A stretch of DNA of 64,000 nucleotides, from assembly GCA_965214705.1 (NCBI GenBank), contig OZ243972.1:288001-352000 (forward strand), given 5' to 3'. This DNA comes from Alphaproteobacteria bacterium. Lineage in GTDB: Bacteria > Pseudomonadota > Alphaproteobacteria > UBA828. The translations under genes and the position numbers were made by a program. The notes beneath the pieces were generated by a model. The model was not told the origin of the DNA. It made no database searches and worked only from the letters and a program-made list of their open reading frames with translations. Below are positions 23,208 to 59,214 of the stretch, one piece after another; the stretch's first letter is position 1; every line of letters begins with the position of its first letter.

Positions 23208-23420
23208 ATGAGTTTCGGACTGAACCGCGCAGAAGTCATTGGCCGCCTGGGTGCGGACGTCACAATCAACAGCCTCGCCTCCGGCGGGCGCGTGGCCAAT
23301 TTGTCGGTGGCGACCGACGAGGGGTATCTGGATCGCCAATCAGGCCAGAGGGTGGATCGGACAGAGTGGCACCGGGTGGTCAGCTTCCAGAGCGGGCTGA
23401 TCGACATGCTTGAGAAACAT
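23208..23420 (+). pseudogene. ssb: ssb 5' half (copy B), interrupted by integrative element
   Basis: MSFGLNRAEVIGRLGAD...TEWHRVVSFQSGLIDMLEKH, then unrelated sequence and stop at 23450. Confidence 0.95.
23406..23420 (+). repeat. attL core ATGCTTGAGAAACAT
   Basis: Imperfect direct repeat of 58966-58980 (ATGTTCGAGAAGCAC) exactly at the ssb breakpoint; shared GAGAA. Confidence 0.85.
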
Positions 23421-23598
23421 ACGGACAACGGATGGACACACATGCGCTAAGCTGCGTTGGAAACGACAGAAATATCATATATTCATTGAGTTACTGGAAA
23501 CCTCGCCCGAAACCAGCTCGACATAAGACACGCTACTATGCGCACCGGTTTTCTTTCAGGTGTTGATAATCGTGTTGCTCGGCGCTATGCTCCGCACC

Positions 23599-24831
23599 AT
23601 GAAAAATCAGAACCCCGGAAAACGCATCGCCAGGGTCAGGACCCACCTGACCAAGCGCGCCGTCGAGGCGCTCGAGCCCGGCGAGAAGTCCTGGATCGCC
23701 TGGGACGACCGCCTCACCGGCTTCGGTGTCCGTGTCCAGCCCTCGGGCACCAAATCCTTCATCGTCAACTACCGCCCCGGCGACGGCGGGCGCAAGGCGC
23801 CCAACAAGCGCGTCGTCATCGGACGCTTTGGCCGCATGGCCCCCGACGAGGCCCGGCGCAAGGCCCAGGACCTGCTCGGGCGTGTCGCCCGGGGCGAAGA
23901 CCCGGCCGGCGAGCGGTCGGAGGCGCGCGGCGTGCCGACGCTGGCCGAGGCTTTCGAGACTTACATGAGGGCCAATCCAAACCGGGCGGTCAACACCGTC
24001 AGGCTCTACCGCCAGAACCTGAGGGTCAATCTCGGGGACTGGCTGAAGCGTCCCCTCGACGGCATCTCGCGGCAAGACGTGGAGGACCGGTTCAACTTCA
24101 TCACCCGCAAACATGGCTGGGCGGGGGCGAACCAGACGCTTTCGATGCTGCGTTCGATCTACCGCCGGCCCTGCGTCGACCACGAGGGGTTGCGCAATCC
24201 CGTGGAGTTGTGGCTCGCGGCCGGCGGCCGCTTCCACCGCATGCGGCGGCGGCGGATCTCCGGTCCGGTCGAGGTGCTGCCGCGCTGGCGCGCGGGAATT
24301 GACGCGGTCGACCTCGATCCCGCGATCCGCGACATCTTCCTGATCGGGCTCTACACGGGCATGCGCATGGGCGAGGTCGTGTCACTACGCTGGGAGAGGG
24401 TGGACCTTGAGCGGCGCATTCTCAGGGTCGAGGAGACCAAGACCGGGGAGCCTCTGGAGCTTCCGGTGACCCGGCAGCTCGCCGCGATCTTCGAGCGCCG
24501 CCGGGCGCACGGCGGCGAGCCAAGTTCGGAGGCGGAGGGCTGGCTCTTCCCGGCCCCCAGGAAGGCCGCGTCGGGCCATGTCTCGCACCTTTCGCAGTTC
24601 TACCCCGACATCACCAAGGCCGCCGGAACCCGTTTCTGGTTTCACGGGCTGCGCAACGCCTTCATCACGGTGGCCGAGCGCGAGCTGATGCTGCCGCGCT
24701 CGCTGACCAAGCGGCTGGTCAACCACGCCCGCCCCCCCGACGTGACCGAGGGCTACGCTGCGGACTGGACCGTCGAACAGCTTCGCGAACCGGCACAGCG
24801 CGTTGCGGATCGGATTGACGAACTGATCTGA
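23599..24831 (+). CDS. Tyrosine integrase with N-terminal arm-binding domain
   Basis: LTKRAVEAL...WDDRLTGFGVRV..SGTKSF arm domain; catalytic R (TGMR), K (KTG), HGLR, H (VNH), Y (EGY). Confidence 0.95.
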   Translation: MKNQNPGKRIARVRTHLTKRAVEALEPGEKSWIAWDDRLTGFGVRVQPSGTKSFIVNYRPGDGGRKAPNKRVVIGRFGRMAPDEARRKAQDLLGRVARGEDPAGERSEARGVPTLAEAFETYMRANPNRAVNTVRLYRQNLRVNLGDWLKRPLDGISRQDVEDRFNFITRKHGWAGANQTLSMLRSIYRRPCVDHEGLRNPVELWLAAGGRFHRMRRRRISGPVEVLPRWRAGIDAVDLDPAIRDIFLIGLYTGMRMGEVVSLRWERVDLERRILRVEETKTGEPLELPVTRQLAAIFERRRAHGGEPSSEAEGWLFPAPRKAASGHVSHLSQFYPDITKAAGTRFWFHGLRNAFITVAERELMLPRSLTKRLVNHARPPDVTEGYAADWTVEQLREPAQRVADRIDELI

Positions 24832-25128
24832 ACGCGTCGTCAGCCGCCGCATGGGAGCGGATGGGATCGGCAAAGCACTGTATTCTCGACGTTCCTCCTC
24901 TTGGCGGGCACCCGCCTTTGGTGAGGGTCTGGCGAAGATCAGAAGGCAACTCGGCCGCTCGGGTGCTGGAATCACGCGGCTTGGTATGCGCGTCTCGGAG
25001 TCGATCCGCTAAAGTCTTCCACGAGCCGCACTGCCGATGTGGGGTCGGACAGGGGAAACAACCGTTGGGGCGGTGACCAGCAGATGGCGTCGTGACAAAC
25101 TTGCATCGTACATATTTGTACGGTTACT

Positions 25129-25344
25129 ATGACCGGTGACGAGTTCGTTCGGCGCGTCCGTCGTGTCGGGCGCGAGCGCGATGTCGCGGTGCGCTTGGAG
25201 ACCCGCCCGGGCAAGGGAAGCCATGCACGGCTGTATTTTGGGGAGCGCTTTGCCACGATAAAGGACCGACGCAAGGAGATCGGCGCGGGGCTCTTGGCGG
25301 CAATGCTCCGGCAGCTCGGGCTCAACCACGAGGACTTGGGGTAA
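25129..25344 (+). CDS. hicA: HicA-family toxin
   Basis: 71 aa, GKGSH motif, EIGAGLLAAMLRQLGL; upstream of HicB. Confidence 0.9.
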   Translation: MTGDEFVRRVRRVGRERDVAVRLETRPGKGSHARLYFGERFATIKDRRKEIGAGLLAAMLRQLGLNHEDLG

Positions 25345-25350
25345 CGGACG

Positions 25351-25797
25351 ATGAAGGAAGGTGGGATGACGCAAGGGCTAACTTGGCCCGCAGAACTGGA
25401 GCAGCAGGAGGATGGTTCGGTCCTGGTCTTCTTTCCGGACGTCCCGGAGGCGTTGACCGAAGGGGAGACGGAGGCGGAAGCGCTGGCGCAGGCCCAAGAC
25501 TGCCTTGTCGCCGCCCTTGGGGGATATGTAGGGGCGCGGCGCGCCATCCCCCGGCCGTCCCCGGCGCACGGGCGCGCCACGGTTCCGCTGCCGGCCCTCA
25601 CCGCCGCCAAGATTGCGCTCTACGGCGCGATGCGCACCCAAGGTGTCTGCAACACCGCGCTGGCTGAGCGGCTGGGCCTTTCCGAAGGGGCGGTGCGCCG
25701 GTTGATTGACCTCGACCACCGTTCGCACATCGGCCAGGTCGAAACGGCGCTGAATGTTCTGGGGCAGCGGCTCACGGTTGCGACCCGGGCGGCGTAG
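25351..25797 (+). CDS. hicB: HicB-family antitoxin with HTH
   Basis: VFFPDVPEALTEGETEAEAL motif and C-terminal HTH. Confidence 0.9.
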   Translation: MKEGGMTQGLTWPAELEQQEDGSVLVFFPDVPEALTEGETEAEALAQAQDCLVAALGGYVGARRAIPRPSPAHGRATVPLPALTAAKIALYGAMRTQGVCNTALAERLGLSEGAVRRLIDLDHRSHIGQVETALNVLGQRLTVATRAA

Positions 25798-25912
25798 AGT
25801 CTGCGTGATTAGGACAGCGAACCTGCGGGGAACGCACCCGTCCATGAGATGTGTGCATGGTGGATTTGGGAAAGGTGTCGATTCAATCGCACCGGGCAGC
25901 ATTCAAGAAGTC

Positions 25913-27073
25913 ATGAGATCGGTTTATCTCGACTATAACGGATCGACACCGCTTGATCCACGCGTGGCTGAAATCATGGTGCCGATTCTGATGGAGGGGA
26001 TCGGGAACGCATCGTCGATACACCGCTTCGGTCGCCAGCAGAGCGTTGCGGTCGATGAAGCCCGCGAACACGTTTGCGCCATGGTCGGGGGCCGCTCTGC
26101 CAACGTGGTGTTCACATCCGGCGCGACCGAGTCCAACAATCTGGCCCTCAGAGGGGCGGTGGAAGGCGCTCCTGTCGGCCGGCCCCGAATTCTGATTTCC
26201 GCAGTCGAACATGCATCGGTTCGACAGACTGCTCGGTGGCTCGAGGAGCGCGGAATGACGAACCTCGGGGTCATTCCCGTTACCCGAGGTGGCTTCGTCG
26301 ACCTTGATGCATTGGAATCTATAATCGGCACGGATGTGCTGCTGGTGTCGGTTATGGCGGCAAACAGCGAGACCGGTATACTGAATCCGGTGGAGAAGAT
26401 CGCCGAGCAGGCTCACGCCTTTGGCGCCCTGCTCCACTGCGATGCGACGCAGCTCGTAGGCCGATTGTCGTTCGATCTTGAACGGATCGGCGTTGACCTC
26501 GTATCGGTGAGCAGTCACAAGATATGTGGTCCGACCGGTGTCGGTGCACTCGTGGGCTCACGACGCGGCTTGCGGCGGCTGCAACCGATCATCCACGGTG
26601 GCGGGCACGAACACGGCTTGCGGTCGGGTTCGCTTAATGTTGCCGGCATCGCGGGTTTCGGCGCCGCCGCGCGGATAGCCACCGAAGAACGAACGCGTGA
26701 ATCGGCGCGAGTCGCGGAGGCGCGTGACCGATTGACCGCTGCGCTGAAGTCGCGGCTCACTGGTGTACACGAAGTCGGAGACGTCGCTCGGCGGCTCCCC
26801 AACACGGCCAACGTCCGATTTGAGGGTGCCGATGCGGAGGCAGTCGTAAGCAACATGGACCCTGTTGCCGTCTCGACAGGCAGTGCGTGCAGCTCTGGAT
26901 CGATTGAGCCCTCAGAGGTTCTACTCGCCATGGGCATCTCACGCGAATCAGCGTTCGAGACGGTCAGATTCAGTCTGGGCCGATTTACGACGACGGAAGA
27001 CATCAATCTCGCAGTGAATAAGACCGTCGACGCCGTGGAGCACGTTCGGAGCATGGCCAGGAGGAGTGCGTGA
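25913..27073 (+). CDS. sspA: Cysteine desulfurase (IscS/DndA/SspA-like)
   Basis: YLDYNGSTP, FTSGATESNN, HCDATQ, SSHK (PLP Lys), STGSACSS (catalytic Cys); TGATG-coupled to next gene; symbol assigned from context. Confidence 0.88.
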   Translation: MRSVYLDYNGSTPLDPRVAEIMVPILMEGIGNASSIHRFGRQQSVAVDEAREHVCAMVGGRSANVVFTSGATESNNLALRGAVEGAPVGRPRILISAVEHASVRQTARWLEERGMTNLGVIPVTRGGFVDLDALESIIGTDVLLVSVMAANSETGILNPVEKIAEQAHAFGALLHCDATQLVGRLSFDLERIGVDLVSVSSHKICGPTGVGALVGSRRGLRRLQPIIHGGGHEHGLRSGSLNVAGIAGFGAAARIATEERTRESARVAEARDRLTAALKSRLTGVHEVGDVARRLPNTANVRFEGADAEAVVSNMDPVAVSTGSACSSGSIEPSEVLLAMGISRESAFETVRFSLGRFTTTEDINLAVNKTVDAVEHVRSMARRSA

Positions 27074-28077
27074 TGCGTCCGCTCGACGCAGCCAAGCCGA
27101 TGTTCGCTCGGCACGAGACGTTTCATCCTCGCTATGGCTGGTTCAGGAAGGCCTACAGATTTGCAGCTGCAGATCCCCAAATCTTCAGCAGAGACGATGC
27201 ACCCGTGCGGATCGGGGTGGGCAAAAACATGGTCCGTGCGATTCGCTTTTGGGGGCTTGCTGCCAAGCTAATCGAGACGAAGGAGCGAACTTCCAACCTA
27301 CGGGTTTCCGAGTTGACTCCCACGTCCTTTGGCGAGGCGCTCTTCGGTAAGTCGGGGTGGGACCGATACATGGAGGATCCGGGGACACTTTGGCTCTTGC
27401 ACTGGTTGCTGCTGGCTCCTCCCTCGCTGTTGCCGGTGTGGTGGATTGCGTTCAACGACTTTCCCGCTGTGGAGTTCGACGACGACGATCTCGTGGCGGC
27501 AGTCACGACGCAGCTCGAGGCCATCGCGGAGTGGAATGTGCCCCATCCGTCGTCCGTGAAGAAGGATGTCGGCGCCATGCTGCGTACCTATGCACCGGCA
27601 GAGCGCGGCGGGCGCAACAGTATCGACGACATCCTGGATTGCCCGCTCCGCGAGCTGAACCTGATTGGCCGTTCGATCGGAACGAATCAATACCGGTTCG
27701 CGTTGGGAGCGAAGCCTAGCCTGCCGAGCGAGATCCTCGGTTATGCTGCCCTGGACTACTGTGTTCGTACTTCAACTGGAGGAAATACGGTCACGCTCGG
27801 TCGCCTTGCCCATGAGCCAGGCGCTCCTGGCAAGGTCTTCAAGTTGACCGAAGGCGAGTTTTATTCCGCAATCGAACCACTCGCGCGCGAAACGGATGCA
27901 ATTGCCCTGACGACGAGTACGGGAGGCGTTCAACTTTCCTGGTCAGGCAAGCCGAACGAAATCGCGACTGGGATTCTCGACCGGTACTATAGGTACTTCG
28001 TCTCTGACACCCGATCAGATCGTGCTGATCACGTCGACGCCCATTCGCCGCCGACCGTATCGGCGTTGGGGCCATAA
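27073..28077 (+). CDS. sspB: DUF4007-family protein (SspB-like)
   Basis: FARHETFHPRYGWFRK, IGVGKNMVRAIRFWG, DRYMEDPGTLWLLHW motifs typical of DUF4007. Confidence 0.85.
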   Translation: MRPLDAAKPMFARHETFHPRYGWFRKAYRFAAADPQIFSRDDAPVRIGVGKNMVRAIRFWGLAAKLIETKERTSNLRVSELTPTSFGEALFGKSGWDRYMEDPGTLWLLHWLLLAPPSLLPVWWIAFNDFPAVEFDDDDLVAAVTTQLEAIAEWNVPHPSSVKKDVGAMLRTYAPAERGGRNSIDDILDCPLRELNLIGRSIGTNQYRFALGAKPSLPSEILGYAALDYCVRTSTGGNTVTLGRLAHEPGAPGKVFKLTEGEFYSAIEPLARETDAIALTTSTGGVQLSWSGKPNEIATGILDRYYRYFVSDTRSDRADHVDAHSPPTVSALGP

Positions 28078-31000
28078 ATGGCCGTGCTTGCCGACCATAT
28101 CTCGGTTCTCGACCGTTTCGCCCGTTCGACGAATCTGGAGCGGGACGTAGACCGGCTTGAACCGCTCGATGGATACATCGTCACTGCACGTGCATTGGAT
28201 GTTGTCGAGCGCGTCGCTGGTACTGCCGTAGCGGGCGCGGCTGGGGGCGCGTGGTCGCTGACGGGCCCCTATGGTTCGGGCAAATCCTCCCTCGCCCTGT
28301 TGCTCGACGGTGCGTTTGGTCCCGCCGGCCCGACGCGAACACGCGCCTTGAAGTTGATCGATGAAACGTCACCGGCAGTGGGGGAGTCCATTCGGTGTGC
28401 CCATGAACGTTACCGCACGATGGATTCCGGATTCCAGCGCGGTCTGATTACCGCTAGCCGAGAGCCGATCGGCGACACGTTGCTTCGGGCACTTCAATCC
28501 GCGGTCCTCCGGCGATACGGCAAGCTTTCATCATCCGAAAAATTGCCGGCGGCCAACACGCTCAGGCGAGGAATTGACGACGCGGTGGAAAACAACCCGC
28601 ACAGAACCGGGCCCTCTGCGGTCGAAATAGTCGAAATCGCACGGTGCTTGGCAGAGAATTCGCCGCTGCTTCTGATCATCGACGAATTCGGTAAGAACCT
28701 GGAAGCGATCGGAGACAGCTCTGAAGCCGATCCTTATCTGTTGCAAATGCTTGCCGAGGCGGGACAGGGCTCGGGATTGCCCATTTTTTTGCTGACCTTA
28801 CAGCATCTGTCATTCGAGAATCATCTGACTGGTGTTGCGGCTCCTCGACGCCGTGAGTGGGCGAAAGTGCAGGGTCGATTCGAAGACATTGCCTATGTTG
28901 ACTCGTCCCGACAGTCCCGCGCGCTGATTGGAACTGTCTTCGCAGTCAGCAACGAGAACTTGCGGAAGCGGATCACTCGCTGGGCCCGACCCCACGCAAG
29001 GGCGATGCGATCGCTCGGCATAGCCGAAATGGCGGATCCGGAGGTCGTGGCCTCATGCTATCCCCTGCATCCTCTGGCCGCCATGCTTCTGCCGGAGCTC
29101 TGCAATCGCTACGGACAGCACGAACGGACGTTGTTCTCGTTCCTGGCCGGGCCGCACTCGGCTGGCGTTGCGTCCTTCCTTGCGAGCACCAAGCTACCGA
29201 GCCGCGGGGCGCTTCCGTCCCTCGGACTCGGAACCGTCTACGACTATTTCGTCTCCGGCGATGCGCAGGTGGAAATTGCATCGGATCGTCTGCGCCGATG
29301 GAACGAGATTGCCCTTCGGCTCCGCGATCTCCACGGCCTCTCCCCGCGAGAGACCCGTTTGGCAAAAGCCATTGCTCTGCTGAATCTGGTATCGGTCGGC
29401 GGAACCGTTCGGGCGTCTTCCGAGGTCCTGTCTCTCGTTGATGCCGATTCGGCCAATCTATTGGTGCGTCTCGATGCAGCGGGAGTTGTCACCTACCGGG
29501 AGTTTGCCGACGAGTACCGGATCTGGCAGGGGACGGACGTTGATATTCGTCGCCTCATGGAGCTTGCACGGCGGAAGGCAGGGCGGCAGTCGCTCTCCGA
29601 AATTCTTTCCGGCCTGGATGTGCCCGCGCCGGTAGTGGCCGCGCGACACAGCGCGAAGCACGATGTTTTTCGGGTGTTCGCCAGACGCTATGCTGACAGT
29701 GGCGAAGATGTCGAACCTCTGGATGCATTCGCTCCCTGTGACGGCGAAGTGCTGCTCGTCGTCGGAGCGGATCGGAGATTGCCGAAACTGGTCAGTCCGA
29801 CGGCGGCTGCCAAGCCGACCGTGGCGGCAATTCCGGATGACTTGACCGCACTCGACAGAGCTGGCCGAGAAATCGCTGCGGTCACCGTTGTATTGAATGA
29901 TCCTGTCGTCGAGTCCGATTGGGTGGCTCGGTGCGAACTCGCTGAGCGACTGGCGGAGTCTCAGGCCGCTCTTCGAGATGCCATGACCGTCACGTTCGGC
30001 GCTGGCGCATGCCAATGGGTCCTTATTGACGATTCTGGGGTGAGGGAGTTGCGCGCAGGACGAGGCAGCGCGGCATTGTCGGAGGCAGCCGATTTCGCGT
30101 ATCCGTTCACTCCGGCGGTCGGCAACGAAATGCTAAACCGGACTGACCTCACCTCCCAGGGTGCCAAGGCCCGACGTCGCCTGCTCGAAGCCATGATCGA
30201 ACGCCGTTCCGAGGCAAATCTAGGGCTTGAGGGCTACGGCCCGGAAGTGGCCATGTATCGCGCATTCCTGGCCAGGACGGGGCTCCACCTCCGTGTCTCC
30301 AATGGCGAAACCTATGATTTTGGCACACCAACAGACACATCGGTGCTTCCTGCCTGGAAGGCGCTGGAACGCGAATTCGCACGCGCCAAGACACTTCGTG
30401 TCAACCTCAAGGACATCCATGCCGTCCTCCTCCTGCCGCCGTTCGGAATGAAAGCGGCGATTGTTCCGGTGTTCGTGACGGCGGCGCTGCTCGCATTCAG
30501 AGATGAAATCGCGATCTACGAGCACGGGACCTTCAAACCGCTGCTGACTCCCGATCTGTCAGAACGGATGGTCCGAAACCCTAGCCACTTCGAGATCAAG
30601 CACTTCGCGAATGCCGCCGGAGCCCGTCGGCAAGTTGTCGACGCACTGGCAGAACGCCTCGGGGGGGTGACGCGGTTCGGCAAGCACAGGGTGGGGAATG
30701 TCCTTTCCGTGGTAGGTCTTATGGTGCATCAGGTCAGGAACCTCGACGGTTACACGCGGCGTACCCGCAATTTGGGAGCCGCCGCGCGAATGGTGCGGGA
30801 TGCGATCGGGATGGCAGTTGAGCCAGACGAGTTGCTTTTCGATGCCCTCCCGAGTGCTTTGGGATTCCGGCCCGTGCCGACCGACACGAAGACATATGCG
30901 AAGGCTTGCGAGTACGCCGATGGCGTGGGTGTCGCGTTTGACGAGCTCGCTGGATGCCATGACGAACTTCTCGCCGATCTCTTTCAGTTTCTCCTCGACA

Positions 31001-31548
31001 CAAGTGCGGAAAGCAGCCGACTCGCAGTGACCGGACAGGCGGCTGCCCTCGATAACGAAGTTCTAAACCCGTCAGTTAGAGCGTTTGTCAGAACGTTGGC
31101 CAATGACAGAGTTGATACGGATGCCGACTGGATCAGCGCCGTCGCCACGGTCGTGGCCGGGAAGGCTCCAATGGAGTGGGACGACGACGACCTGTCTCGT
31201 TTTCGCGGCGAGCTCCCCTTGGAAATTGCCGCCTTTCAGCGCCTTGTCGCGCTCCACGCCGAGCGACGGGCCGACGGCGGAGGCCCCTTCGACGCGCTGC
31301 GAGTTACCATCACCCGCCCCGATGGTAGCGAGCATGTTGGCTTGGTCGACATCGACCGACGCGAACGTGGCGTCGTAGACAAGGCCATTGGTGAAGTGCT
31401 GAAGGAGTTGGGCGAGACCATTGGTTCGCCTCATCGAGTCCACAAGGCATTGCTCGCCGCGCTCGGTGATCGGATTCTGTCCGAGCAGGCCAGAAGGGAG
31501 GATGAAGCGGTTCTTGTCCTCCCGAAAAGGAAATCTCGAAATGGATGA
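28078..31548 (+). CDS. sspC: Large P-loop ATPase (SspC-like)
   Basis: RSTNLERD N-terminus, Walker A GPYGSGKS, Walker B LLIIDEFGK, YPLHP; lies between DUF4007 and PAPS-reductase genes. Confidence 0.78.
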   Translation: MAVLADHISVLDRFARSTNLERDVDRLEPLDGYIVTARALDVVERVAGTAVAGAAGGAWSLTGPYGSGKSSLALLLDGAFGPAGPTRTRALKLIDETSPAVGESIRCAHERYRTMDSGFQRGLITASREPIGDTLLRALQSAVLRRYGKLSSSEKLPAANTLRRGIDDAVENNPHRTGPSAVEIVEIARCLAENSPLLLIIDEFGKNLEAIGDSSEADPYLLQMLAEAGQGSGLPIFLLTLQHLSFENHLTGVAAPRRREWAKVQGRFEDIAYVDSSRQSRALIGTVFAVSNENLRKRITRWARPHARAMRSLGIAEMADPEVVASCYPLHPLAAMLLPELCNRYGQHERTLFSFLAGPHSAGVASFLASTKLPSRGALPSLGLGTVYDYFVSGDAQVEIASDRLRRWNEIALRLRDLHGLSPRETRLAKAIALLNLVSVGGTVRASSEVLSLVDADSANLLVRLDAAGVVTYREFADEYRIWQGTDVDIRRLMELARRKAGRQSLSEILSGLDVPAPVVAARHSAKHDVFRVFARRYADSGEDVEPLDAFAPCDGEVLLVVGADRRLPKLVSPTAAAKPTVAAIPDDLTALDRAGREIAAVTVVLNDPVVESDWVARCELAERLAESQAALRDAMTVTFGAGACQWVLIDDSGVRELRAGRGSAALSEAADFAYPFTPAVGNEMLNRTDLTSQGAKARRRLLEAMIERRSEANLGLEGYGPEVAMYRAFLARTGLHLRVSNGETYDFGTPTDTSVLPAWKALEREFARAKTLRVNLKDIHAVLLLPPFGMKAAIVPVFVTAALLAFRDEIAIYEHGTFKPLLTPDLSERMVRNPSHFEIKHFANAAGARRQVVDALAERLGGVTRFGKHRVGNVLSVVGLMVHQVRNLDGYTRRTRNLGAAARMVRDAIGMAVEPDELLFDALPSALGFRPVPTDTKTYAKACEYADGVGVAFDELAGCHDELLADLFQFLLDTSAESSRLAVTGQAAALDNEVLNPSVRAFVRTLANDRVDTDADWISAVATVVAGKAPMEWDDDDLSRFRGELPLEIAAFQRLVALHAERRADGGGPFDALRVTITRPDGSEHVGLVDIDRRERGVVDKAIGEVLKELGETIGSPHRVHKALLAALGDRILSEQARREDEAVLVLPKRKSRNG

Positions 31549-35183: not shown

Positions 35184-35412
35184 GAACGAAGCCGCTACGC
35201 GGAGTTAGCGGCGTAGAGTTCATTCATTTCCGAGGCGTCGCGGGTGCCGTTTGTTCTGTGCGTTCGCTTCCCGGTTGCGTCAGTGGCGCTCCGCCCGTCG
35301 GGTGGCGGATCCCCAGCAGCCTCCCGATCACCAGTGGTTAGTATCGACCCCTGCGACGGACCGTCGCCGGATCGGTCCGGCGGCGCGCCGTCGCGATCCA
35401 GGGAGATCGATA

Positions 35413-36291: not shown

Positions 36292-36297
36292 CGGCGC

Positions 36298-37539: not shown

Positions 37540-37801
37540 GACGCCCGCTCGCTTCGGCCCCGCGCAACGGCGCCAAAGCGCCGACGCACGACCGAACCTG
37601 TCTCCGCTTGAGCCGGGCTGACAGCCCTCGGCTCACACCCCGCTCAGTCCTCGCAGCGTGCGCCCGCATGCCTGCCGAAAGACCGGCGCGAGCGTCGATT
37701 TTATGCGCAACTCTGCTGCCGGTGGATGCCGCCTGACGCTGACATCAGCGCACTTTCCACATAGCTCAACTTCGCCTCTCGTGGCCCGCGGCTTCGTTCA
37801 A

Positions 37802-37843
37802 AAGGGTTGGGCAGGCTCTCTCTCGAGAGCCTGCCCAACCCTT
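37802..37843. repeat. 19-bp perfect hairpin at the IS91-like right end
   Basis: AAGGGTTGGGCAGGCTCTC-tctc-GAGAGCCTGCCCAACCCTT. Confidence 0.9.
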
Positions 37844-37849
37844 AACCTT

Positions 37850-50055: not shown

Positions 50056-50982
50056 TCACGCCGCGCAGCGCTGAACCGGGATGCCGAGCGCGACGGCCTT
50101 GTCGACGAGGTTGTCGGTGATGCCCGAGCCCGGGAAGGCGATGACGCCCTTGGGCAGCAGGTTCAGCAGGTCGTCGTTGCGCCGGAACGGAGCCGCGCGG
50201 CCATGGGCGTTCCAGTCGGGCTTGCACACCACCTGATGGACGCCGTTGCGGTCCGCCCACTGGGCTGCGATGCGTTCGACGCCGGGGCCGCCGCCGTGCA
50301 CGAGGACGAGGTCCGCGTACTTCGCCCGCGCCTTGTCGAGGCGTGCGAAGACGGCGTTCGCGTCGGTGACGTCCTTGCCGCCGGCGATGGCGACCAGCGT
50401 GCCCTCGGGCAGGTGGGCCTTCATCTCGCGGTCCTTGCGTGCGCGTAAGAAGTCGCGGGCGTCGATGGCGGCCGAGGTGAGCTTGCCGGTCTGGCTCGTG
50501 TGGCTGCCGTGCCTCGGGCGCCAGGTGTCGCCGGTCTCGCCGCGGTAGGCGTCTGCGGCGGCGTCGCGCAGTTGCTCGAAGGCGTCGCGGCGGTCGCCGA
50601 GGTTGCGCGCCCGGTCGGTCACCAGTTCGAGCTCGCGGGCGTTGATCTCGGTGCCGTCCTGGGCGCGCTGGAGGTCGCGGAGCTGGGGCGCGAGGCGGTC
50701 GACGCCGCGGTCGAGGCGCCGGACCTGGGCGTCGAGGCAGTTGACGAAGCCCCAGAGCAGGCTCTCGCGCTCGTCGGCGAGCTGGAAGCCGTCCGGCGCG
50801 ACGCCTTCGGCGAGGACGCGGAACGCCTCGCTCACCGCGTCGATGGCGTCGTCGCGGTCCCAGACCTCGCGCGGGTCGAACTCGTCGCGCTCGGGGGTTG
50901 CGCCGTAGAGCTGGGCGTTCTCGCAGACGATGGCGGTCGGGGACTGCGCCTGGTGGGTGTCGATGCTGTCGAGGTCGTACAT
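50056..50982 (-). CDS. DUF2493/YspA-SLOG-like protein
   Basis: LVHGGG.G.E.IA..WA, AAPFRRND, IAFPGSGI motifs; RBS AGGAGA; paralog at 63626. Confidence 0.85.
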   Translation of the reverse strand: MYDLDSIDTHQAQSPTAIVCENAQLYGATPERDEFDPREVWDRDDAIDAVSEAFRVLAEGVAPDGFQLADERESLLWGFVNCLDAQVRRLDRGVDRLAPQLRDLQRAQDGTEINARELELVTDRARNLGDRRDAFEQLRDAAADAYRGETGDTWRPRHGSHTSQTGKLTSAAIDARDFLRARKDREMKAHLPEGTLVAIAGGKDVTDANAVFARLDKARAKYADLVLVHGGGPGVERIAAQWADRNGVHQVVCKPDWNAHGRAAPFRRNDDLLNLLPKGVIAFPGSGITDNLVDKAVALGIPVQRCAA

Positions 50983-51452: not shown

Positions 51453-51511
51453 CTTCTTCTTGATTGCGGCACCGCCCGCCGCGACTGTCGCGGTGACCGA
51501 ACGCATTTCCG

Positions 51512-51739
51512 TCAACCCCACAGCGGATGCGAGTCCACCCGCTGCTGGACCACGTCGCGGATGCTGTCGCGGTCGCGAATGCGCACCGGTCCACGGATGT
51601 CCTCGTCGAGATGCGCGACGTAGACGCGCTGGCCGGGATGGAGGACGTCGTCGAGGCAGTAGAGGTCGCCGATGCAGTCCCCGTCCTGATAGATGCGTGA
51701 TTCGCCCGGAGTGATGCGCTTGAAGGCGATGCGGCTCAT
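51512..51739 (-). CDS. Conserved 75-aa hypothetical protein
   Basis: RBS GAGGAGG; R(I/V)YQDGD..GD...DD.L...HL.ED.RGPVR shared with 60555-60782. Confidence 0.8.
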   Translation of the reverse strand: MSRIAFKRITPGESRIYQDGDCIGDLYCLDDVLHPGQRVYVAHLDEDIRGPVRIRDRDSIRDVVQQRVDSHPLWG

Positions 51740-52071
51740 GCGGCCCTCCTCGATTCGAGCTGCGAAGCGGCCCAGGCCGCGGCGCGGGCGAGCACGTGCC
51801 CGTGGCAGGGCAGTGGGTCGCACCAGCAGGCGAGCCGCATGCCGTCGAGCTCGGCGAGCGCCTCGAGCGCGACCTCGCCGGCGCGGATGCGCCGCCAGAG
51901 GTCGGCCCGGTAGCGCGCGATGACGTGCTCCCTCGTTCCATCGCGTCCGACCTTGAAGGGGTTCCCCCACTTGGTGCGCCGGTCGATGAGCACGGTGTTG
52001 CTGTGCACGTGCGCGTGCTCGAGCTCTTCCCTGAGCCCGGGCTCGTGCTTCAGATTGACGACGGCGTCCAT
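51736..52071 (-). CDS. DUF4326-like protein
   Basis: IDRRTKWGNPF and LACWCDPLPCHGHVL motifs. Confidence 0.85.
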   Translation of the reverse strand: MDAVVNLKHEPGLREELEHAHVHSNTVLIDRRTKWGNPFKVGRDGTREHVIARYRADLWRRIRAGEVALEALAELDGMRLACWCDPLPCHGHVLARAAAWAASQLESRRAA

Positions 52072-53088
52072 GGCCTCTCTCCTCTACTCCGGTCGGCTTG
52101 CCCGACCCTCCGCTCGCCTCTTCCTCCCGCGAAGCGGAACAGGGGCGCGAGCCGGGCGGTGAGCGCGCCGGGCCCGAGCGCCACGAGGTCGTCGTTGAAG
52201 TCCCCGCCCTCGGGGACGACGACGAGAGCGGCGACGCCGGCGCGCGCGCAGCGCCGCGCGAGGCGTTCCGCCGCCTGCTCGCCCTCGGCGTCGCTGTCGC
52301 GGGCGATGACGAGGCGGGCGAGGCCGGGCGGAGGCGCGAACGCGCCGAGGCTCCCGGCCGAGAGCGCCGCCGCGGCGGTGGTCTGCGGCACGGCGGTGAT
52401 GAGCGAGAGCACCGTCTCGATGCCCTCGCCGACCAGCAGCGACGCGTCGGGCCGTCCGAAGCGGACGGCGTGGCCGTAGATGCGCCCGAGCGCCTTGCGC
52501 GGATGGGCGACGCCCGCCTTGGCGGGCGAGCGGGGGTCGAGCCAGGTGCGCTGCACGCCGAGGATGGCGCCGTCGTCGCCGGTCGCGGCGGCGACCAGCG
52601 CCGGCAGGTGTCGGACGCTCGCGCCTTCGCGGTAGCGAAGCGCGGGGTGGAAGCGCAGCGCCGCGAAGCGGCAGCGCGCGAGACCCCGCGCCTGGAGGTA
52701 GCGCTCGGCATGTGTGCCGTCGATGGCGCGGCAGCCGCGCCAGAGGCGGCGCGCGGCCTCGCTCGCGTCGTAGGTCTCGCCCCCGTCCGTGGCCGGCGCA
52801 GCCGGCAGGGCGAGGAAGGCGCGCGCCTCGTCGAGCGCCGCGCGCAGCGTCGGCGCGCGGAGGCGGAGGCGGATGAGGTCGAGCAAGTCGCGTGCTTGCC
52901 GGTGGCCGATCGGTCCACTTCCCCGGTGTGCCGGGGCCTGCGAGGCGCACGTAGAGGGAGCGCCCGCGGGCGCCGTCGAGGTCGCCCGCGACCCAGTAGC
53001 GGCCCTGGCGGCGGCCGTGCGGCAGGTAGTGCCGGCACACGGCCTCGGCGCGCTCGCCGAGCGCGGCGGCGATGGCGGCGGCGTTCAC
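52050..53088 (-). pseudogene. Toprim-domain primase-like gene, frameshifted as given
   Basis: Paralog of 59494-60477; two single-base losses near 52890-52910 separate the GRYWVAGD N-terminus from the VGEGIET/DSD/GGDFNDD Toprim part. Confidence 0.82.
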
Positions 53089-53324: not shown

Positions 53325-53792
53325 TCAGAACGGCAGGTCTTCGCCGGATTCCGGCATCTGTGCCGGAGCGCCGCCCGCCGGCATGGCCTCGCCGTTCGCG
53401 GGTGCGGTCTCCGTCGCGGCGGCCGCGCCGTTAGCGCCGTTCGCCTTGTCGAGGAACTGGATCCGCGAGCCGGGCACGAGCAGGATCTCGGTCGAGAACC
53501 GGTCCGAGTCCTCGTCGTCCTTGCGCCAGCGCCGGGTCTGCATCTTGCCCGCGACGTAGACCAACCGGCCCTTCCTCGCGTTCTTGGTCAGCATGTCGAT
53601 GAGGCCGGGCTGGAAGGTCACCACCCGGTGCCACTCGGTCTTGTCGATGCGCTCGCCCGAGCTGCGATCCAGATACCCCTCGTCGGTCGCGATGCTCAGG
53701 TTGGCCACGCGGCCCCCCGAGACGAGATGGTTGACGACGACGTCGGCGCCGAGGCGGCCGATGACTTCCGCGCGATTCAATCCGAAGCTCAT
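53325..53792 (-). CDS. ssb: Single-stranded DNA-binding protein, intact (copy C)
   Basis: NRAEVIGRLGAD, TEWHRVV, KGRLVYVAGKMQTRRW, acidic tail EDLPF; RBS AAGGAG. Confidence 0.97.
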   Translation of the reverse strand: MSFGLNRAEVIGRLGADVVVNHLVSGGRVANLSIATDEGYLDRSSGERIDKTEWHRVVTFQPGLIDMLTKNARKGRLVYVAGKMQTRRWRKDDEDSDRFSTEILLVPGSRIQFLDKANGANGAAAATETAPANGEAMPAGGAPAQMPESGEDLPF

Positions 53793-54546: not shown

Positions 54547-54745
54547 GGATGAACTCCCTCGGTTGCGCCGGTGCGGGCCATCGACGGGCCGGCTGGCGGT
54601 AGTGGCACGGCGGCGGAGCGGATGCCCACCGGCGGCACGGGCGGGATGCCTGTCCTCCGCGTCCCCGGTCGGCGGCGGGACGGCCAGACGTCTGTCACGG
54701 GCGCCGGCCGCGGCGGGTATCCACCGGATCGCCGGGGCACGGCCG

Positions 54746-55765
54746 TTACTCCCACCCCGTCATCGACTGCATGGGCGAGCGGTCCACAAGCACCTCGACC
54801 TGGTCCCGGGTCAGCTTCTCGAAGGCGAGATAGGCTGCCACGTCCATTTCGTCGTCGAAGACGCCGAGCGGCACGTCGGAGTCGACCGGCACCACGGTGA
54901 AGGTCGGAGGATAGATCGGCAACCCCCGGAAATGATCCGATCGCTCGTAACTGCGGCGCGCGCACGGCGCGCACCTCGCCGCGCCCTGGCTCGGCGCATT
55001 GCAGTCCGTACAGCGCCCGGTCATTTTCCGCGCCCAATACCGCCGACGGGCCGCCTCGTTCTTTCGTTCGGCGGAACGGCCTTCGAATTCGAGCGCCGAA
55101 CACGGTGCGCACCGCGAGGCGCCGTCGTTCGTCGGGCCGGCGCATTTCACGCACAACCCGGCGGACCTCCGGGCGGCGTAGAGCTCGCGGTCCGCCTCGC
55201 GTCTCGCGATGCGGCAAGGCTCGCAGGTCGTGCCGCCCTCGACGGGCGGACGGCGACCGCAACCGGTGCATAGCCCGGAATCGCGGCGGATGTTCTGGCG
55301 CCGCTTGCTGGCGAGGCGGGCGGCCCTGCGCTTGACCGCTACCGATCTGCCGCCGTACTTGAGCCCGGCACCCTTCGCCTTGCGGTATCGGATCCGGTCG
55401 GCCTCGCGCCTCTTCGCCAGACAGAGCTCGCACGTGCGGCGGCCGGGCTCGGTGGGATTGCGGCCGCATTTGCCGCACAACCCGGCCTCGCGCCGCTGTT
55501 CGGCTTCCCGGCGGGAGCGCTCGCGCTCGTACTGCCTTGCGCGGTTGGGGTCCCGTCTGGGCTGTCCCGCCGCGCGGAGACGCGCGTCGCGCGCCCGTCC
55601 GGCGGCGTTGGCCTTCTCGGCGCAGGCGCCGCAGACGGGCCGGCCGGGCACGGGTCGGCAGCGTCCGCACTTGACGCAAAGGCCGGCAGCGCGCCGTTTG
55701 GCAACCCGCCTGCGGGAGCGCTCGCGGTCTCTCTGCTTTCGTACCACCAAGTCTCGATATGCCAC
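54746..55765 (-). CDS. Arg-rich five-unit CxxC..CxxC zinc-finger protein, copy C
   Basis: RBS AGGAGG before GTG; five paired-CxxC units; C-terminal FTVV...VAAYLAFEKLTRDQVEV. Confidence 0.82.
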   Translation of the reverse strand: MAYRDLVVRKQRDRERSRRRVAKRRAAGLCVKCGRCRPVPGRPVCGACAEKANAAGRARDARLRAAGQPRRDPNRARQYERERSRREAEQRREAGLCGKCGRNPTEPGRRTCELCLAKRREADRIRYRKAKGAGLKYGGRSVAVKRRAARLASKRRQNIRRDSGLCTGCGRRPPVEGGTTCEPCRIARREADRELYAARRSAGLCVKCAGPTNDGASRCAPCSALEFEGRSAERKNEAARRRYWARKMTGRCTDCNAPSQGAARCAPCARRSYERSDHFRGLPIYPPTFTVVPVDSDVPLGVFDDEMDVAAYLAFEKLTRDQVEVLVDRSPMQSMTGWE

Positions 55766-55848
55766 AGCGTCCTCCTGGCGTGTTCGGACTTCGGACCGCG
55801 GGCGCCCCGGCCGGCTTGCCGCCGGCGGGACGCCCGGGAGAACGCCGC

Positions 55849-56184
55849 TCAGCCCCTCTGGCGGCGGTCGTGGAACATCGAGGTCGCGATGTCCCCCCAG
55901 TACTGCCTGCCGCCGCGGGTGCGCAGCCCCGTGCAGATGATGATCTCCGTGCGCGCCGGGCGCATGGCTTCGGCCTCCTCGCGCGAGACCACCATGCGCT
56001 TCGCCCTGCGCCGGCCCTTGGTCCGCGGGGCCTCGGGCTGGATCGGGCGAATGTCTCCGTCGATCAGTGCCTTGAAGCGCTCGACCACGAAGCGGTCCTC
56101 GCCGTCGAGGCCGTTGCCGAAGGTGTGAACGAGATATGTCCGGGCGCCGCCCTGAAGCGCTTCGATCGTCTGCATAAGTGTCAT
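55849..56184 (-). CDS. Conserved hypothetical backbone protein, copy C
   Basis: TYLVHTFGNGL...GDIRP...EIII...QYWG; paralog of 8578 and 21751. Confidence 0.8.
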   Translation of the reverse strand: MTLMQTIEALQGGARTYLVHTFGNGLDGEDRFVVERFKALIDGDIRPIQPEAPRTKGRRRAKRMVVSREEAEAMRPARTEIIICTGLRTRGGRQYWGDIATSMFHDRRQRG

Positions 56185-56629
56185 CTCCGTCGTGCCGATG
56201 GTCGGGAACGGCGGCAGCGCCTCTCCCCTGAGCGCCGACCGCCGCCCCGCTTCCGACCGGACTCCGACTCTCGGCGGCGCGAAGCACGTCGGGTGGCGAT
56301 AGGACGGCAAGGGGTTGCGGCAGCAAGACGGCGACGACGACTTCGGGGAAGGAGACAAGCCGCCGGCGAGGCCGATGGCGGGCGGTTCGTCGGGTTGGGC
56401 GGCAACCGTGCCGCGAGGCTTCCCGACGGCGCTGAAGCCGTGTCGGCGCTGCGATCGGCGACAGGCGGCGGCGTGCCGTCTACGCTGCGCATCCTCGGAT
56501 CCGGCGGTGTCGACGATCCGGCATCCACAGCCGAACAGGCGTTTGTGCCCGAGCCGGCGGAACGCTGGAATCCGGGGGTGAGAAGTGAGGAGGGAGTGGA
56601 GAGCGCGGCGAGTCGGGAGCGGCTGACTG

Positions 56630-57820
56630 ATGAACGCACAACAATCCAAGCCCGCGGCCTCGACGCACGGTTTCCTGTCCTACGGCTTCCGGCCCTTCTT
56701 CCTGTCCGCGGCGCTGTGGGCGCTGCTCGCCATGGCGTCTTGGGTCGCGATGCTTACCGGAAGGCTCGCGTTGCCGAGCGCTTTCGACCCGGTGTCCTGG
56801 CACGCCCACGAGGCGCTGTTCGGCTATCTCGGCGCGGTGCTCGCGGGGTTCCTGCTCACCGCCGTGCCGAACTGGACTTCCCGGCCTCCACTCGCGGGGT
56901 GGCCCCTGGCCGGCCTGCTCGCGCTCTGGGTCCTCGGCCGGGTTGCGGTCGCGGCGTCGGAATGGCTCACGCCCTTGGCGGTGGCGCTGATCGACCTGTC
57001 CTGCCTCGTCGTCCTTGGCGGCTACGTGCTGCGCGAGATCGTCGCCGGCAGGAACTGGCGCAACCTCGTGGTGATCGCGATGATCGGCGTGTTCGTCACG
57101 GGCAACGCGCTGTTCCATCGAGAAGCCGCCGACGGCGCGTACGCGGCGTCGGGCTACGGGCTGCGCATCGGCCTTGCCGCCGCGATCATGATGATCTCGA
57201 TGATCGGCGGGCGGATCGTTCCCGCGTTCACGCGCAACTGGCTGTCGGCGCGCGGCAGCGATGGGCTCCCGGCGGAGTTCGGGCGTCTCGACGGCCTCGC
57301 CCTCGCGCTCACCTTGTTCGCACTTGCCGCGTGGGTGGCGGTCCCCGAGGCATCCGCGTGCGGATATTTGCTCCTCGCCACGGGCCTCGCGCAGGCCGCA
57401 CGGCTCTCGCGCTGGTGCGGGCTGCAGACACGCCGCGAGCCCCTGCTGTGGATCCTGCACGTGGGATACGCGTTCGTGCCGCTCGGCATGCTGGGCGTGG
57501 GCGCGACAATCCTGTGGCCGGACACCTTGCCGCCCGCCTCGGCCCAGCATCTGTGGATGGCGGGCGCGATCGGCGTCATGACACTCGCTGTGATGACCCG
57601 CGCGACGCTTGGCCACGGCGGCCGGGTGCTGACCGCGGGGCCGGGGACGGCCGCAATCTATCTGCTGGTCGTTGCCTCGGTGCTCGCGAGGCTCGCCGGC
57701 GGCGTGCTCCCGGGCCATGCGATGGCGTTGTGGACGCTCGCGGGCCTCCTGTGGTGCTGCGGCTTTGCCGGGTTTATGCTTGCCTACGGACGGCTGTTGA
57801 TCGGCGCGGCGCAGCGGTGA
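56630..57820 (+). CDS. nnrS: NnrS-family heme/copper membrane protein
   Basis: GFRPFFL, WHAHE, GFLLTAVPNW, GGRIVPAFT, EPLLWILHVGY, MTRATLGH motifs. Confidence 0.95.
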   Translation: MNAQQSKPAASTHGFLSYGFRPFFLSAALWALLAMASWVAMLTGRLALPSAFDPVSWHAHEALFGYLGAVLAGFLLTAVPNWTSRPPLAGWPLAGLLALWVLGRVAVAASEWLTPLAVALIDLSCLVVLGGYVLREIVAGRNWRNLVVIAMIGVFVTGNALFHREAADGAYAASGYGLRIGLAAAIMMISMIGGRIVPAFTRNWLSARGSDGLPAEFGRLDGLALALTLFALAAWVAVPEASACGYLLLATGLAQAARLSRWCGLQTRREPLLWILHVGYAFVPLGMLGVGATILWPDTLPPASAQHLWMAGAIGVMTLAVMTRATLGHGGRVLTAGPGTAAIYLLVVASVLARLAGGVLPGHAMALWTLAGLLWCCGFAGFMLAYGRLLIGAAQR

Positions 57821-57951
57821 GCGGCGACGGCGGAAATGGCGTTCACGGCCGCCGCGCCGTGGCTCGCGAGGTACCGGCAAGGATCGCTCGGAAGATGACG
57901 ACTGCCCGCGGTTACCGCCGACGACGGCCGAGATAGCGCAGGGATCGCATC

Positions 57952-58788
57952 TTGGCAGGAGTTCGAATTTACGACGGTGCTATCCGTTCGCCGGTCGAAG
58001 TGCTGGAACGTTATCTGGATCGGGGCGGCACGACCATTATCCGTGCTGCATTCGAGCATTCTTACTTCGTCCACCCGGACGAGGTCCGACGGAAAACGCC
58101 CCTCTATCCGGATCGGGCCCGTCTCAGTCGCGAGCACTACCCGGGATCTGACAGGGGTGACCGAGGCATGTGGAAGGGTCGGGAAGTCAAGCTGGGCGAC
58201 AACTCCGCGGCTCAGAGGGCCTGGACGAGATATTCCGGCCGGAGCATCGAACGCTCTTCGGGCTACGGCGTTCGACATGTCTGGGGATACCCCTGGGATC
58301 CGGACGCGTTCACCGCCGGATGGAATCTCTGCTACATGCCCTTCTGGGCGGGGATGCTCACGGAGCGGCAACACCCCCATCCGGAACTGGAAGCGGCGAT
58401 TCGCCAGGCGGCATGGGACCTCTTCTTCCGTCAGGACCCGGTGTGCGCCCCGCCGGAGTTCGTAAACGATCCCGGGATCGATCTGGACGCGCTCCTCGGC
58501 GGACAGCCCATCCTTGTCTTGGCTGGGGGAGCGGCCCGTGCCGACCGATGCACGCTGGCGTCCGGGGCCTCAGGCGATGAGATCGACGCACGCATAAAGG
58601 AGATCAGAAGAGCCTCCAGGCAGAGTTGGTCGAACCTGCGGAAGGCCGTGCGTGCGCTCCAGGGGAAGCCGCACGAGCCCTTCGGAACCCGGAACGTCCA
58701 GGCGACAGCGAAGAGCACGGTTCGGCGTATCCAACGCGAGACGGGGCTGGATCTGACCGCACTCGCGTGTCGGCTGACGAAGAATTGA
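57952..58788 (+). CDS. Hypothetical protein, possible HNH-like nuclease
   Basis: Open 278-aa frame; RHVW...FTAGWNLCYMP resembles a beta-beta-alpha H...N pattern; start uncertain. Confidence 0.6.
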   Translation: MAGVRIYDGAIRSPVEVLERYLDRGGTTIIRAAFEHSYFVHPDEVRRKTPLYPDRARLSREHYPGSDRGDRGMWKGREVKLGDNSAAQRAWTRYSGRSIERSSGYGVRHVWGYPWDPDAFTAGWNLCYMPFWAGMLTERQHPHPELEAAIRQAAWDLFFRQDPVCAPPEFVNDPGIDLDALLGGQPILVLAGGAARADRCTLASGASGDEIDARIKEIRRASRQSWSNLRKAVRALQGKPHEPFGTRNVQATAKSTVRRIQRETGLDLTALACRLTKN

Positions 58789-58965
58789 GGGGTCGGTCGG
58801 GGGCATCCGGGAGATCTGGGACCCGGCGAGGTGGGTTGCGTGAGACATTTCGCAGGACTTGTCGCCGTGTTGCGATAGTGTTGACAAGCAGCTCGCGAGA
58901 ACCGGCCCTCATAGAATTAATTCTCTAAAAACACTAGGTTATGACGTAGAAAATCTCCTGCTCGA

Positions 58966-58980
58966 ATGTTCGAGAAGCAC
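58966..58980 (+). repeat. attR core ATGTTCGAGAAGCAC
   Basis: Counterpart of 23406-23420; preceded by AT-rich DNA and tandem GTGTTG at 58867 and 58878. Confidence 0.85.
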
Positions 58981-59214
58981 GCGAAGAAGGGCCGGCTGGT
59001 CTACGTCGCGGGCAAGATGCAGACCAGGAAGTGGCGCAAGGAGGGCGAGGACAGCGACCGGTTCTCGACCGAGATCCTGCTGGTGCCTGGTTCGCGCGTC
59101 CAGTTCTTGGATAAGCCTGCCGGCACCAACGGCAACGGTGCCCAGGCGCCCGACGGTGAGGCTGCGCCGGCCGGCGATGCCGCTACGGCAGGGACAGACG
59201 GCGTCCCGTTCTAG
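58966..59214 (+). pseudogene. ssb: ssb 3' half (copy B)
   Basis: EKHAKKGRLVYVAGKMQTRKW...DGVPF resumes where 23208-23420 stops. Confidence 0.95.

Follow-up and report, generated by a model that had tools for sequence, protein, structure and literature searches.

An integrative mobilizable-type element inside the ssb gene of a sibling element: probable site-specific insertion by a P4-type tyrosine integrase

How does an ssb gene come to lie in two pieces some 35.5 kb apart, with an integrase gene beside the first of them? The question is raised by a 64,000-nucleotide stretch of Alphaproteobacteria bacterium DNA (GenBank contig OZ243972.1, positions 288,001 to 352,000; hereafter the window, whose positions are given without prefix), in which an earlier sequence-only reading had proposed that one mobile element, the guest, integrated site-specifically into ssb of a related element, the host. 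In this window of high G+C content, the ssb frame that opens at 23208 (protein start MSFGLN) is normal as far as ...GLIDMLEKH, the last codon of which (codon 71) ends at 23420, and then continues with nine unrelated residues to a stop at 23450. The N-half (23208–23450, forward strand) is made up of 71 ssb residues and this nine-residue tail from the guest, and the C-half (58966–59214, forward; 82 aa) begins MFEKHAKKGRLVYVAG, translated MFEKHAKKG, and ends ...DGVPF. The Pfam SSB profile matches the N-half over positions 1–69 of 104 and the C-half over 62–98 of 104, and the halves are therefore complementary parts of one domain, with the break at codons 66–70 and a joint length of 148 aa. The SSB domain across both halves and the C-terminal ...PF tip of the C-half, the protein-interaction motif of SSB proteins, identify the product as an SSB of the oligonucleotide/oligosaccharide-binding (OB) fold.

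The genome that contains the window (three contigs, C1–C3, 7.9 Mb) holds 21 intact paralogs of the split gene (145–159 aa), 15 of which read ...GL(I/V)DMLEKHAKKGRLVYVAG... uninterrupted over the break position, and in at least seven intact copies, for example C1:2688812-2692893, the left flank, ssb and the right flank are contiguous. One paralog, C3:2314182, agrees at 53 of the 56 nt that precede the junction and at 149 of the 150 nt that follow it, so that the two halves fit one gene and, across the junction, one ssb lineage. Over their full lengths the N-half and the C-half have different best paralogs, with the N-half upstream of codon 52 being closer to paralogs other than C3:2314182, which points to mosaicism among the ssb paralogs as the likely source of this divergence. 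A mosaic breakpoint at the attachment (att) core, as the footprint of an attL x attR exchange, was considered and rejected, the switch relative to C3:2314182 lying upstream of codon 52. The split itself, with the N-half departing from ssb after ...IDMLEKH and the frame resuming as MFEKHAKKG, is confirmed by the reading frames, the Pfam matches and the 21 intact paralogs, and is a real feature of the locus.

The N-half is followed by the gene of a P4-type tyrosine integrase (23599–24831, forward; 410 aa, with an alternative GTG start at 23560), which adjoins attL at 183 bp. The protein combines the catalytic domain of tyrosine recombinases (PF00589 Phage_integrase, 49.3 bits against a cut-off of 27.1) with the N-terminal arm-binding domain of P4-type integrases (PF13356 Arm-DNA-bind_3, 61 bits against a cut-off of 27), and its translation contains, by eye, the candidate motifs YTGMRMGE, ETKTGEP, FHGLRNAF, VNHA and TEGY, which may supply the catalytic R, K, H-x-x-R, H/W and Y. 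The attL core (23406–23420, forward) reads ATGCTTGAGAA/ACAT, with the slash marking the junction, and the attR core (58966–58980, forward) reads ATGTTCGAGAA/GCAC, both exactly as the sequence-only reading had them. The attL junction position recurs in 11 other loci, and five more attR junctions, from four other genomes, are alike in structure. The block GAGAA (23412–23416), which had been put forward as the shared core, holds for the window, where the two ends have GAGAA and imperfect flanks in common; elsewhere the core is instead an 11-bp repeat, ATGTTYGAGAA. Only GAGAA is common to the window ends because the target copy, ATGCTTGAGAA, differed at two positions left of GAGAA, and this limited sharing fits strand exchange in the right-hand part of the 11-mer. 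The exchange would take place within an overlap of ~7 bp, TYGAGAA, with the integrase binding the attP quasi-palindrome ATGTTY-GAG-AAACAT. Two inverted repeats had been noted in the reconstructed sites, and they fared differently. That of attP stands as a 15-bp quasi-palindrome, ATGTTYGAGAAACAT, conserved in other genomes, whereas that of the rebuilt attB (TGCTT-gag-AAGCA) is formed with a CTT codon that none of the 21 paralogs has and that the attB sites of other genomes lack; this repeat is probably accidental. In an alignment of 12 element-side (P') arms, conservation begins exactly at the core, and the window arm (23417–23598, forward) carries the conserved blocks GACA, ACGACA and GTGTTGAyA..GTGTTGC ahead of the integrase gene, which may represent arm-type binding sites or the int promoter.

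The arrangement recurs elsewhere. When one genome per species was scanned, 377 relatives of the integrase emerged, of which the best 80 loci (66–90% identical) were examined. In 11 of the 80 (L001, L008, L009, L014, L015, L017, L018, L020, L021, L036 and L044, from eight other genome records, with integrases 72–90% identical to that of the window) an ssb N-half ends at residue 71, 177–200 bp upstream of the integrase gene, with no C-half behind it, in line with the earlier suggestion that a 5'-half of ssb should lie about 180 bp upstream of integrase homologs; locus L016, with its ssb N-half 1.1 kb upstream, was left out of this count. Nine of the 11 fall in the clade of the window integrase and have the junction GACATGTTYGAGAA/ACAT..., from which L015 and L018 deviate by point changes, and the other two (L036 and L044), from a separate clade, read ATGCTKGAGAA/TCAT. 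As the contexts upstream of the cut gene vary (L1-L2-ssb, o87-ssb and Toprim-...-ssb, with L1 and L2 being backbone genes described below) and one genome has three occupied ssb copies at distant positions, the same-codon insertions are separate events. In four of five genomes searched, an ssb frame consisting of a C-half only lies 31–43 kb downstream on the same strand, and in the attR junctions fetched the element end is AT-rich and leads into ATGTTYGAGAA/GCACGCGAAGAAGGG; two further attR-type junctions lie elsewhere in the searched genomes. The 11-bp direct repeat ATGTTYGAGAA is present at both ends of the guests of genomes G003 and G004. A terminal integrase gene, direct repeats at the ends and a target position that recurs in independent genomes together mark the guest as a site-specifically integrated element. 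The G003 and G004 guests carry int, TrwC, YAcAr, DUF4326, ssb, L2 and L1 in the order of the window guest, whose TrwC relaxase is 72–78% identical to theirs and whose YAcAr protein is 71% identical, and they differ in cargo, which in G003 comprises an ankyrin-repeat protein, IS1595 and a SIR2-like gene. Homologs of the integrase (66–90%) and of the backbone genes (70–80%) are also found in metagenome-assembled genome records labelled Alpha- and Gammaproteobacteria, Binatia, Thermodesulfobacteriota, Acidobacteria, Gemmatimonadetes and Nitrospinaceae, which suggests either spread over phyla or binning errors.

What, then, is the element that was interrupted? The claim that the guest sits in a relative of its own is borne out by five syntenic backbone genes common to the host flank and the insert, L1, L2, ssb, DUF7146-Toprim and YAcAr, at 37–75% identity, running forward in the host flank and reversed in the guest. 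Host L1 (21670–22074, forward; 134 aa, without a Pfam family, its frame backed by a GC3 frame plot) is 37% identical to the guest copy at 55849–56649 (reverse), and L1 homologs also stand upstream of ssb in L008, L014, L015, L018 and L021. Host L2 (22093–22950, forward; 285 aa, likewise in the GC3 frame, with only sub-threshold Pfam hits to the DZR zinc ribbon) is 44% identical to the C-terminal part of the guest open reading frame (ORF) at 54746–56326 (reverse). The host DUF7146-Toprim gene (59215–60477, forward; Pfam), contiguous with ssb in the intact paralogous copies, is 75% identical to its guest counterpart, and the host YAcAr-type gene (63542–64000, forward), which runs off the window, is 56% identical to the guest YAcAr. 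In the guest, the backbone lies on the reverse strand and comprises the YAcAr (SLOG) gene (50056–50982; Pfam), DUF4326 and DUF7146-Toprim (51736–52071 and 52050–52886; Pfam), an intact ssb (53325–53792; 155 aa, Pfam SSB 1.2e-21), and L2-like and L1-like genes (54746–56649), recognised by homology to the host and uncertain in their exact limits. The host family is multi-copy, with the backbone L1-L2-ssb-Toprim-DUF4326-YAcAr...TrwC.

Does the ssb gene carried by the guest bear on its choice of target? All five ssb-inserted guests examined carry their own ssb in reverse orientation, and at the target position these copies read ATGCTGACCAAGAAC (window), ATGTTCGAGCGGCAC (G002 and G003), ATGCTCGAACGCCAC (G004) and ATGTTCGAAAAGCAC (G005). 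The GAGAA core is present in none of the five, whereas 27 of the 47 remaining intact copies in these six genomes have it (Fisher's exact p = 0.02, and p = 0.005 for cores encoding other than EK, the copies not being phylogenetically independent). The diverged core of a guest's own ssb may thus protect it against self-insertion. Counting against this idea, it rests on five guests, and the G005 core differs from the target by one synonymous base; since the guests are related to one another, self-protection is a lead and not a result.

We consider it very probable that a ~35.5-kb guest of the integrative mobilizable type (C1:311421-346965) entered a resident sibling element by tyrosine-integrase site-specific recombination at ssb codons 66–70. 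The insertion would inactivate the host ssb, as the guest supplies no functional C-terminus, and the loss should be cheap, because the guest brings an ssb of its own and the cell has ~20 copies besides. Being conserved, redundant and present in many copies, such a gene of sibling elements would offer a landing site that is safe and never in short supply. Several observations weigh against this interpretation. The identical block at the window junctions is only the 5 bp GAGAA. Six loci with the same arm (L002, L019, L003, L006, L007 and L004) lie at non-ssb sites, and the genomes of L002/L019 and L003/L006/L007 contain 12–13 element-type ssb copies (that of L004 contains none), so that specificity for ssb is not absolute. 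No relaxase or integrase of this family was found near the host, which may for that reason be what is left of a decayed element. Guest and host have themselves been invaded, the former by IS91 and the latter by a group II intron, and either may on that account now be immobile. In small ORFs near either guest end no excisionase-type family was found, and among public sequencing runs, examined as assembled contigs (Logan), neither an excised circle nor an empty site appeared. Finally, the catalytic residues were read by eye only, no PDB sequence matching the integrase at E <= 0.001.

Could the recurrence of ssb reflect no more than the abundance of a short motif? An integrase recognising only a core of approximately ATGYTNGAGAA would hit ssb often as its most abundant carrier in element-rich genomes, and at the six same-arm loci outside ssb the left flank does mimic the core, as seen in L004 (CGCATGATTGAGAA) and L002 (GTGTTCGAGAA). 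Moreover, 14 of 42 ATGYTNGAGAA sites in the own genome lie in ssb (13 ssb copies and attR itself), so that a single ssb hit is not improbable by itself. However, the exact 11-mer ATGTTYGAGAA occurs at eight non-ssb places in this genome, all of them unoccupied, whereas the occupied ssb site matches at nine of 11 positions, and recognition therefore seems to extend beyond the 11-mer. The use of the identical ssb codon in twelve loci from nine genomes also speaks against recognition of the motif only, and the guests' own ssb genes fit a long association with the ssb target; we regard this explanation as unlikely. Far less probable still is that homologous recombination or rearrangement among repeated elements, or mis-assembly of repeats, produced the arrangement with no action of the integrase. 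The own genome does contain ~25 ssb copies, ~100 IS91 copies and many paralogous elements, and the closest paralogs of the N-half and C-half over their whole lengths do differ. Against this, the junction is identical to the base in other genomes, with an integrase ~190 bp off and both ends marked by an 11-bp direct repeat; the ssb that the guest carries lies inverted in its interior, away from its ends; and paralog C3:2314182 matches on both sides of the junction. Additionally, public-run contig X17 matches 23381–24689 at every position, the private CTT codon among them, although it reaches only 36 nt into the ssb side and may come from the source sample itself. In runs X18 and X2, loose contig ends at 23416 continue GCACGCGAAGAAGG, leading from the N-half into C-half sequence; they could stem from an empty site or equally from an intact paralog, and count neither way.

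With site-specific insertion by the integrase as the preferred explanation, its target range becomes of interest. A tree of 86 integrase sequences, comprising 77 of the 80 loci and nine own-genome paralogs (L002 and L029 having been left out for internal stops and L046 for a short match), needs 17 changes of target class, with classes assigned from the junctions, compared with a mean of 59.7 for shuffled classes, and integrase clades track target sites. The window integrase belongs to a well-supported clade of 20 rows, which holds 10 of the 12 same-codon ssb rows, the five same-arm rows at other sites, and one subclade that targets something else; a second clade, with L036 and L044, also reaches this ssb codon. 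The proposal that the integrase targets a conserved backbone gene of sibling elements is upheld by the identically placed ssb break at 11 of the 80 loci, by the matching attR in four of five genomes, and by the fit of both halves to one ssb lineage across the junction. Of the 80 loci, approximately 27 interrupt a backbone gene of this element family. In sister clades, eleven loci follow ssb-Toprim-DUF4326 and a YAcAr gene that breaks off at about residue 85–90 (...LLWGFVNMLDA/); the YAcAr-targeting loci include L035, L041, L043, L049, L051, L055–L057, L059 and L061, and in five genomes (G010–G014) the N- and C-fragments of YAcAr are paired 18–46 kb apart. The guest's own YAcAr protein contains ...LLWGFVNCLDA..., the site used by this sister clade. 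A second recurrent YAcAr break lies at about residue 225. A second site within ssb is indicated by L060, L074 and L075, in which the integrase gene stands beside an inverted ssb lacking its first ~19 residues. In an own-genome paralog, C1:4054547 (C1:4054017-4055767), the integrase similarly stands beside an inverted ssb cut at about residue 9; when the following 57 kb were scanned for peptide motifs of the absent 5' piece, only an intact ssb came to light. Nine of the 80 loci have the integrase at the 3' end of a tRNA gene.

Taken with the TrwC site mentioned below, these breaks define the five sites of a proposed radiation: ssb codon ~69, the 5' part of ssb in reverse, YAcAr codons ~85 and ~225, and TrwC codon ~232. 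We tentatively propose, as a possibility somewhat short of even, that the integrase family radiated over at least five sites in the backbone of its own element family, with siblings nesting in and inactivating one another over several phyla and guests carrying target-diverged copies. The TrwC site comes from a single locus, L063, where a TrwC gene that breaks off near residue 232 directly adjoins an integrase homolog, and may represent a fourth backbone target. Five further own-genome integrases, ~64% identical to that of the window (C1:2967536, C1:265394, C1:2800897, C3:1322318 and C3:2903336), and L077 all stand behind one G+C-rich hairpin-like repeat ending ...GCGCGTAGACT/(T/A)ACGAGT, which could be an intergenic target resembling repetitive extragenic palindromic (REP) sequences. 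Other disrupted ssb copies in the genome include one at C3:70452-63043, interrupted at residue 43 by ~7 kb that open with a complete ssb of their own, a fragment of residues 1–40 at C2:27096-26977, and a 3' part at C3:303413-303114 beside a pair of more distant integrases.

Is the guest able to move between cells? It encodes a TrwC-type relaxase-helicase (42256–45234, forward; 992 aa, Pfam TrwC 6.3e-84 and AAA_30), and among the insert ORFs scanned with Pfam there was no VirB4, coupling-protein or other type IV secretion system (T4SS) family; genome-wide searches with PF02534 and TIGR00929 likewise placed no hit inside C1:311421-346965. Possession of a relaxase without mating-pore genes gives the guest the composition of the integrative mobilizable elements (IMEs) and not that of the integrative and conjugative elements (ICEs), which encode their own T4SS with a VirB4-family ATPase and coupling protein. 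The 10 largest ORFs of the G003 guest also contained no T4SS family. Having a relaxase but no VirB4 or coupling protein, the guest would need a co-resident conjugative element in order to move between cells. Four VirB4-like ORFs in the own genome (TIGR00929, below cut-off) lie 14–42 kb from TrwC paralogs 68–71% identical to the guest relaxase, and are candidate helpers. PF03135 (VirB4) gave no hits in the own genome, a negative that reflects a problem of sensitivity, given the four VirB4-like ORFs found with TIGR00929, and TIGR03744 was uninformative, matching in no genome, controls included. That the hosts of ssb-inserted guests are themselves T4SS-bearing helpers was considered and is not supported in G002, G004 and G005, the nearest VirB4-like gene being on another contig in G002, 175 kb from the guest in G004 and absent in G005; in G003 it lies at 48 kb. 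No VirB4-like gene was seen near the host copy in the window.

The remainder of the guest includes cargo genes. Behind the integrase gene lies, as cargo, a HicA/HicB-like toxin-antitoxin pair (25129–25797, forward; sub-threshold Pfam hits to HicA_toxin at 23.2 bits and HicB_lk_antitox at 23 bits), followed by a second piece of cargo, the phosphorothioation genes SspA-SspB-SspC-SspD (25754–32389, forward; PADLOC and Pfam), with PADLOC E-values of 3.5e-128, 7.6e-104, 8.2e-302 and 4.8e-107, respectively. Helicase (ResIII/DEAD) and GHKL-ATPase genes after SspD (32377–35216, forward; Pfam, with weak PADLOC hits to PbeA and MzaB) are possibly the restriction partner of the Ssp set, no canonical SspE or SspFGH having been seen with SspABCD by PADLOC or Pfam in 25754–35216. 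The IS91-family unit of 2.67 kb (35181–37849, forward) comprises a tyrosine recombinase gene (35251–36291) and a Y2/IS91 transposase gene (36298–37539), assigned with Pfam, and is present in ~100 copies at 98–100% identity on all three contigs of the genome, an extreme expansion of an insertion sequence. A 767-aa P-loop protein is encoded between TrwC and YAcAr, and the right end of the guest carries NnrS (56630–57820; Pfam 1.2e-106) and an ORF of 278 aa (57952–58788), to which Pfam assigns no family, both forward (56630–58788).

The host flanks carry further traces of mobile DNA. A group II intron (60909–63328, reverse), with a reverse transcriptase-maturase ORF at 60993–62567 (Pfam RVT_1 and GIIM), occupies the host backbone between Toprim and YAcAr, and a copy 98.6% identical to it, at C1:2991416, likewise lies just 3' of an ssb-Toprim module. 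At 5543–5926, 17 kb left of the split ssb, is a remnant of a same-family integrase (residues 285–408, 62% identical). The left flank also contains, at 11440–18989, a fused DEAD/UvrD helicase of 1740 aa with strong DpdF-like and GajB-like hits, a RecD2-type helicase and two Fic-domain genes, which may be defence cargo of the host element, and 3,075 bp at 17361–20435 (part of the RecD2-like gene and a SOUL gene) are 99.9% identical to C1:410011-413085, ~100 kb downstream.

How new is such a target? Firmicute IMEs are described in a review as hunters of conjugative elements, integrating in conserved genes (Maff2-type and SNF2-type) or at the oriT nic site of ICEs (Tn5252 superfamily, Tn916/ICESt3; PMC5704250). 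They resemble the present case as mobilizable elements whose tyrosine integrases target and disrupt conserved genes of conjugative elements, and differ in having Gram-positive ICEs as hosts, whereas in the window guest and host are siblings and the target gene arrives a second time with the guest; the term ssb does not occur in the accessible text of that review. Helper-embedded phage-inducible chromosomal islands (HE-PICIs) are phage satellites with one integrase clade, subclades of which use 14 sites in late genes of lambda-type prophages (PMC10111431). The likeness extends to one tyrosine-integrase clade with subclades at different sites in conserved genes of the host element, and to a nested guest interrupting a gene; the hosts, however, are helper prophages there and relaxase-bearing siblings here, with sites in ssb, YAcAr and TrwC. 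In the HE-PICI arrangement the interrupted element is also the helper of the guest and regains its gene on guest excision; for the present guest the likeness is one of nesting and of targets. GInt islands integrate at the end or beginning of ssb ('the same ssb gene homolog'), leave the product unaltered and use the four-gene GinABCD machinery, as far as the available text describes them (PMC5385486). They share with the present guest the use of ssb as a recurrent target for unrelated mobile islands, but here a single P4-type integrase cuts an element-borne, multi-copy ssb in mid-OB fold, inactivating it. Tn1806, as described in the accessible text, inserts site-specifically into ICEs of the ICESa2603 family, also forming a composite of one element inside another, in streptococcal ICEs and with a different recombinase and target (PMC12942858). 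The dusA-specific integrases are a family dedicated to one protein-coding target in many genomes (PMC4482086), and are similar as a lineage tied to one site in a conserved protein-coding gene; going by the text available, their target is the 5' end of a chromosomal housekeeping gene, unlike the gene of another mobile element used here. In the literature consulted, no tyrosine integrase is described as targeting an internal ssb site, although supplementary tables (GInt Table S3) may list ssb-associated islands. The earlier statement that no description of this target was known thus holds for the internal ssb site, as far as the available texts go, and not for the general idea, which is in print (PMC5704250, PMC10111431). 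The principle is already known from Firmicute IMEs and helper-embedded phage satellites; what is new is the internal ssb target and the use of sibling elements as hosts.

Elements of this family use each other's conserved genes as landing sites, which adds a proteobacterial-type, relaxase-bearing case to the few integrases that home on genes of mobile elements instead of tRNA or housekeeping genes. For annotation, a 'pseudogenised' ssb, YAcAr or relaxase gene beside an integrase gene is a warning that it marks an element boundary, and the 15-bp quasi-palindromic core, with natural target variants that are maybe resistant, makes for a compact att system. The most interesting part is the whole integrase radiation with several backbone targets, which would explain the build-up of heavily nested composite islands in element-rich genomes. 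If true, it would amount to a contest of targeting and target escape within one family, a conjugative-element counterpart of the helper-embedded phage satellites.

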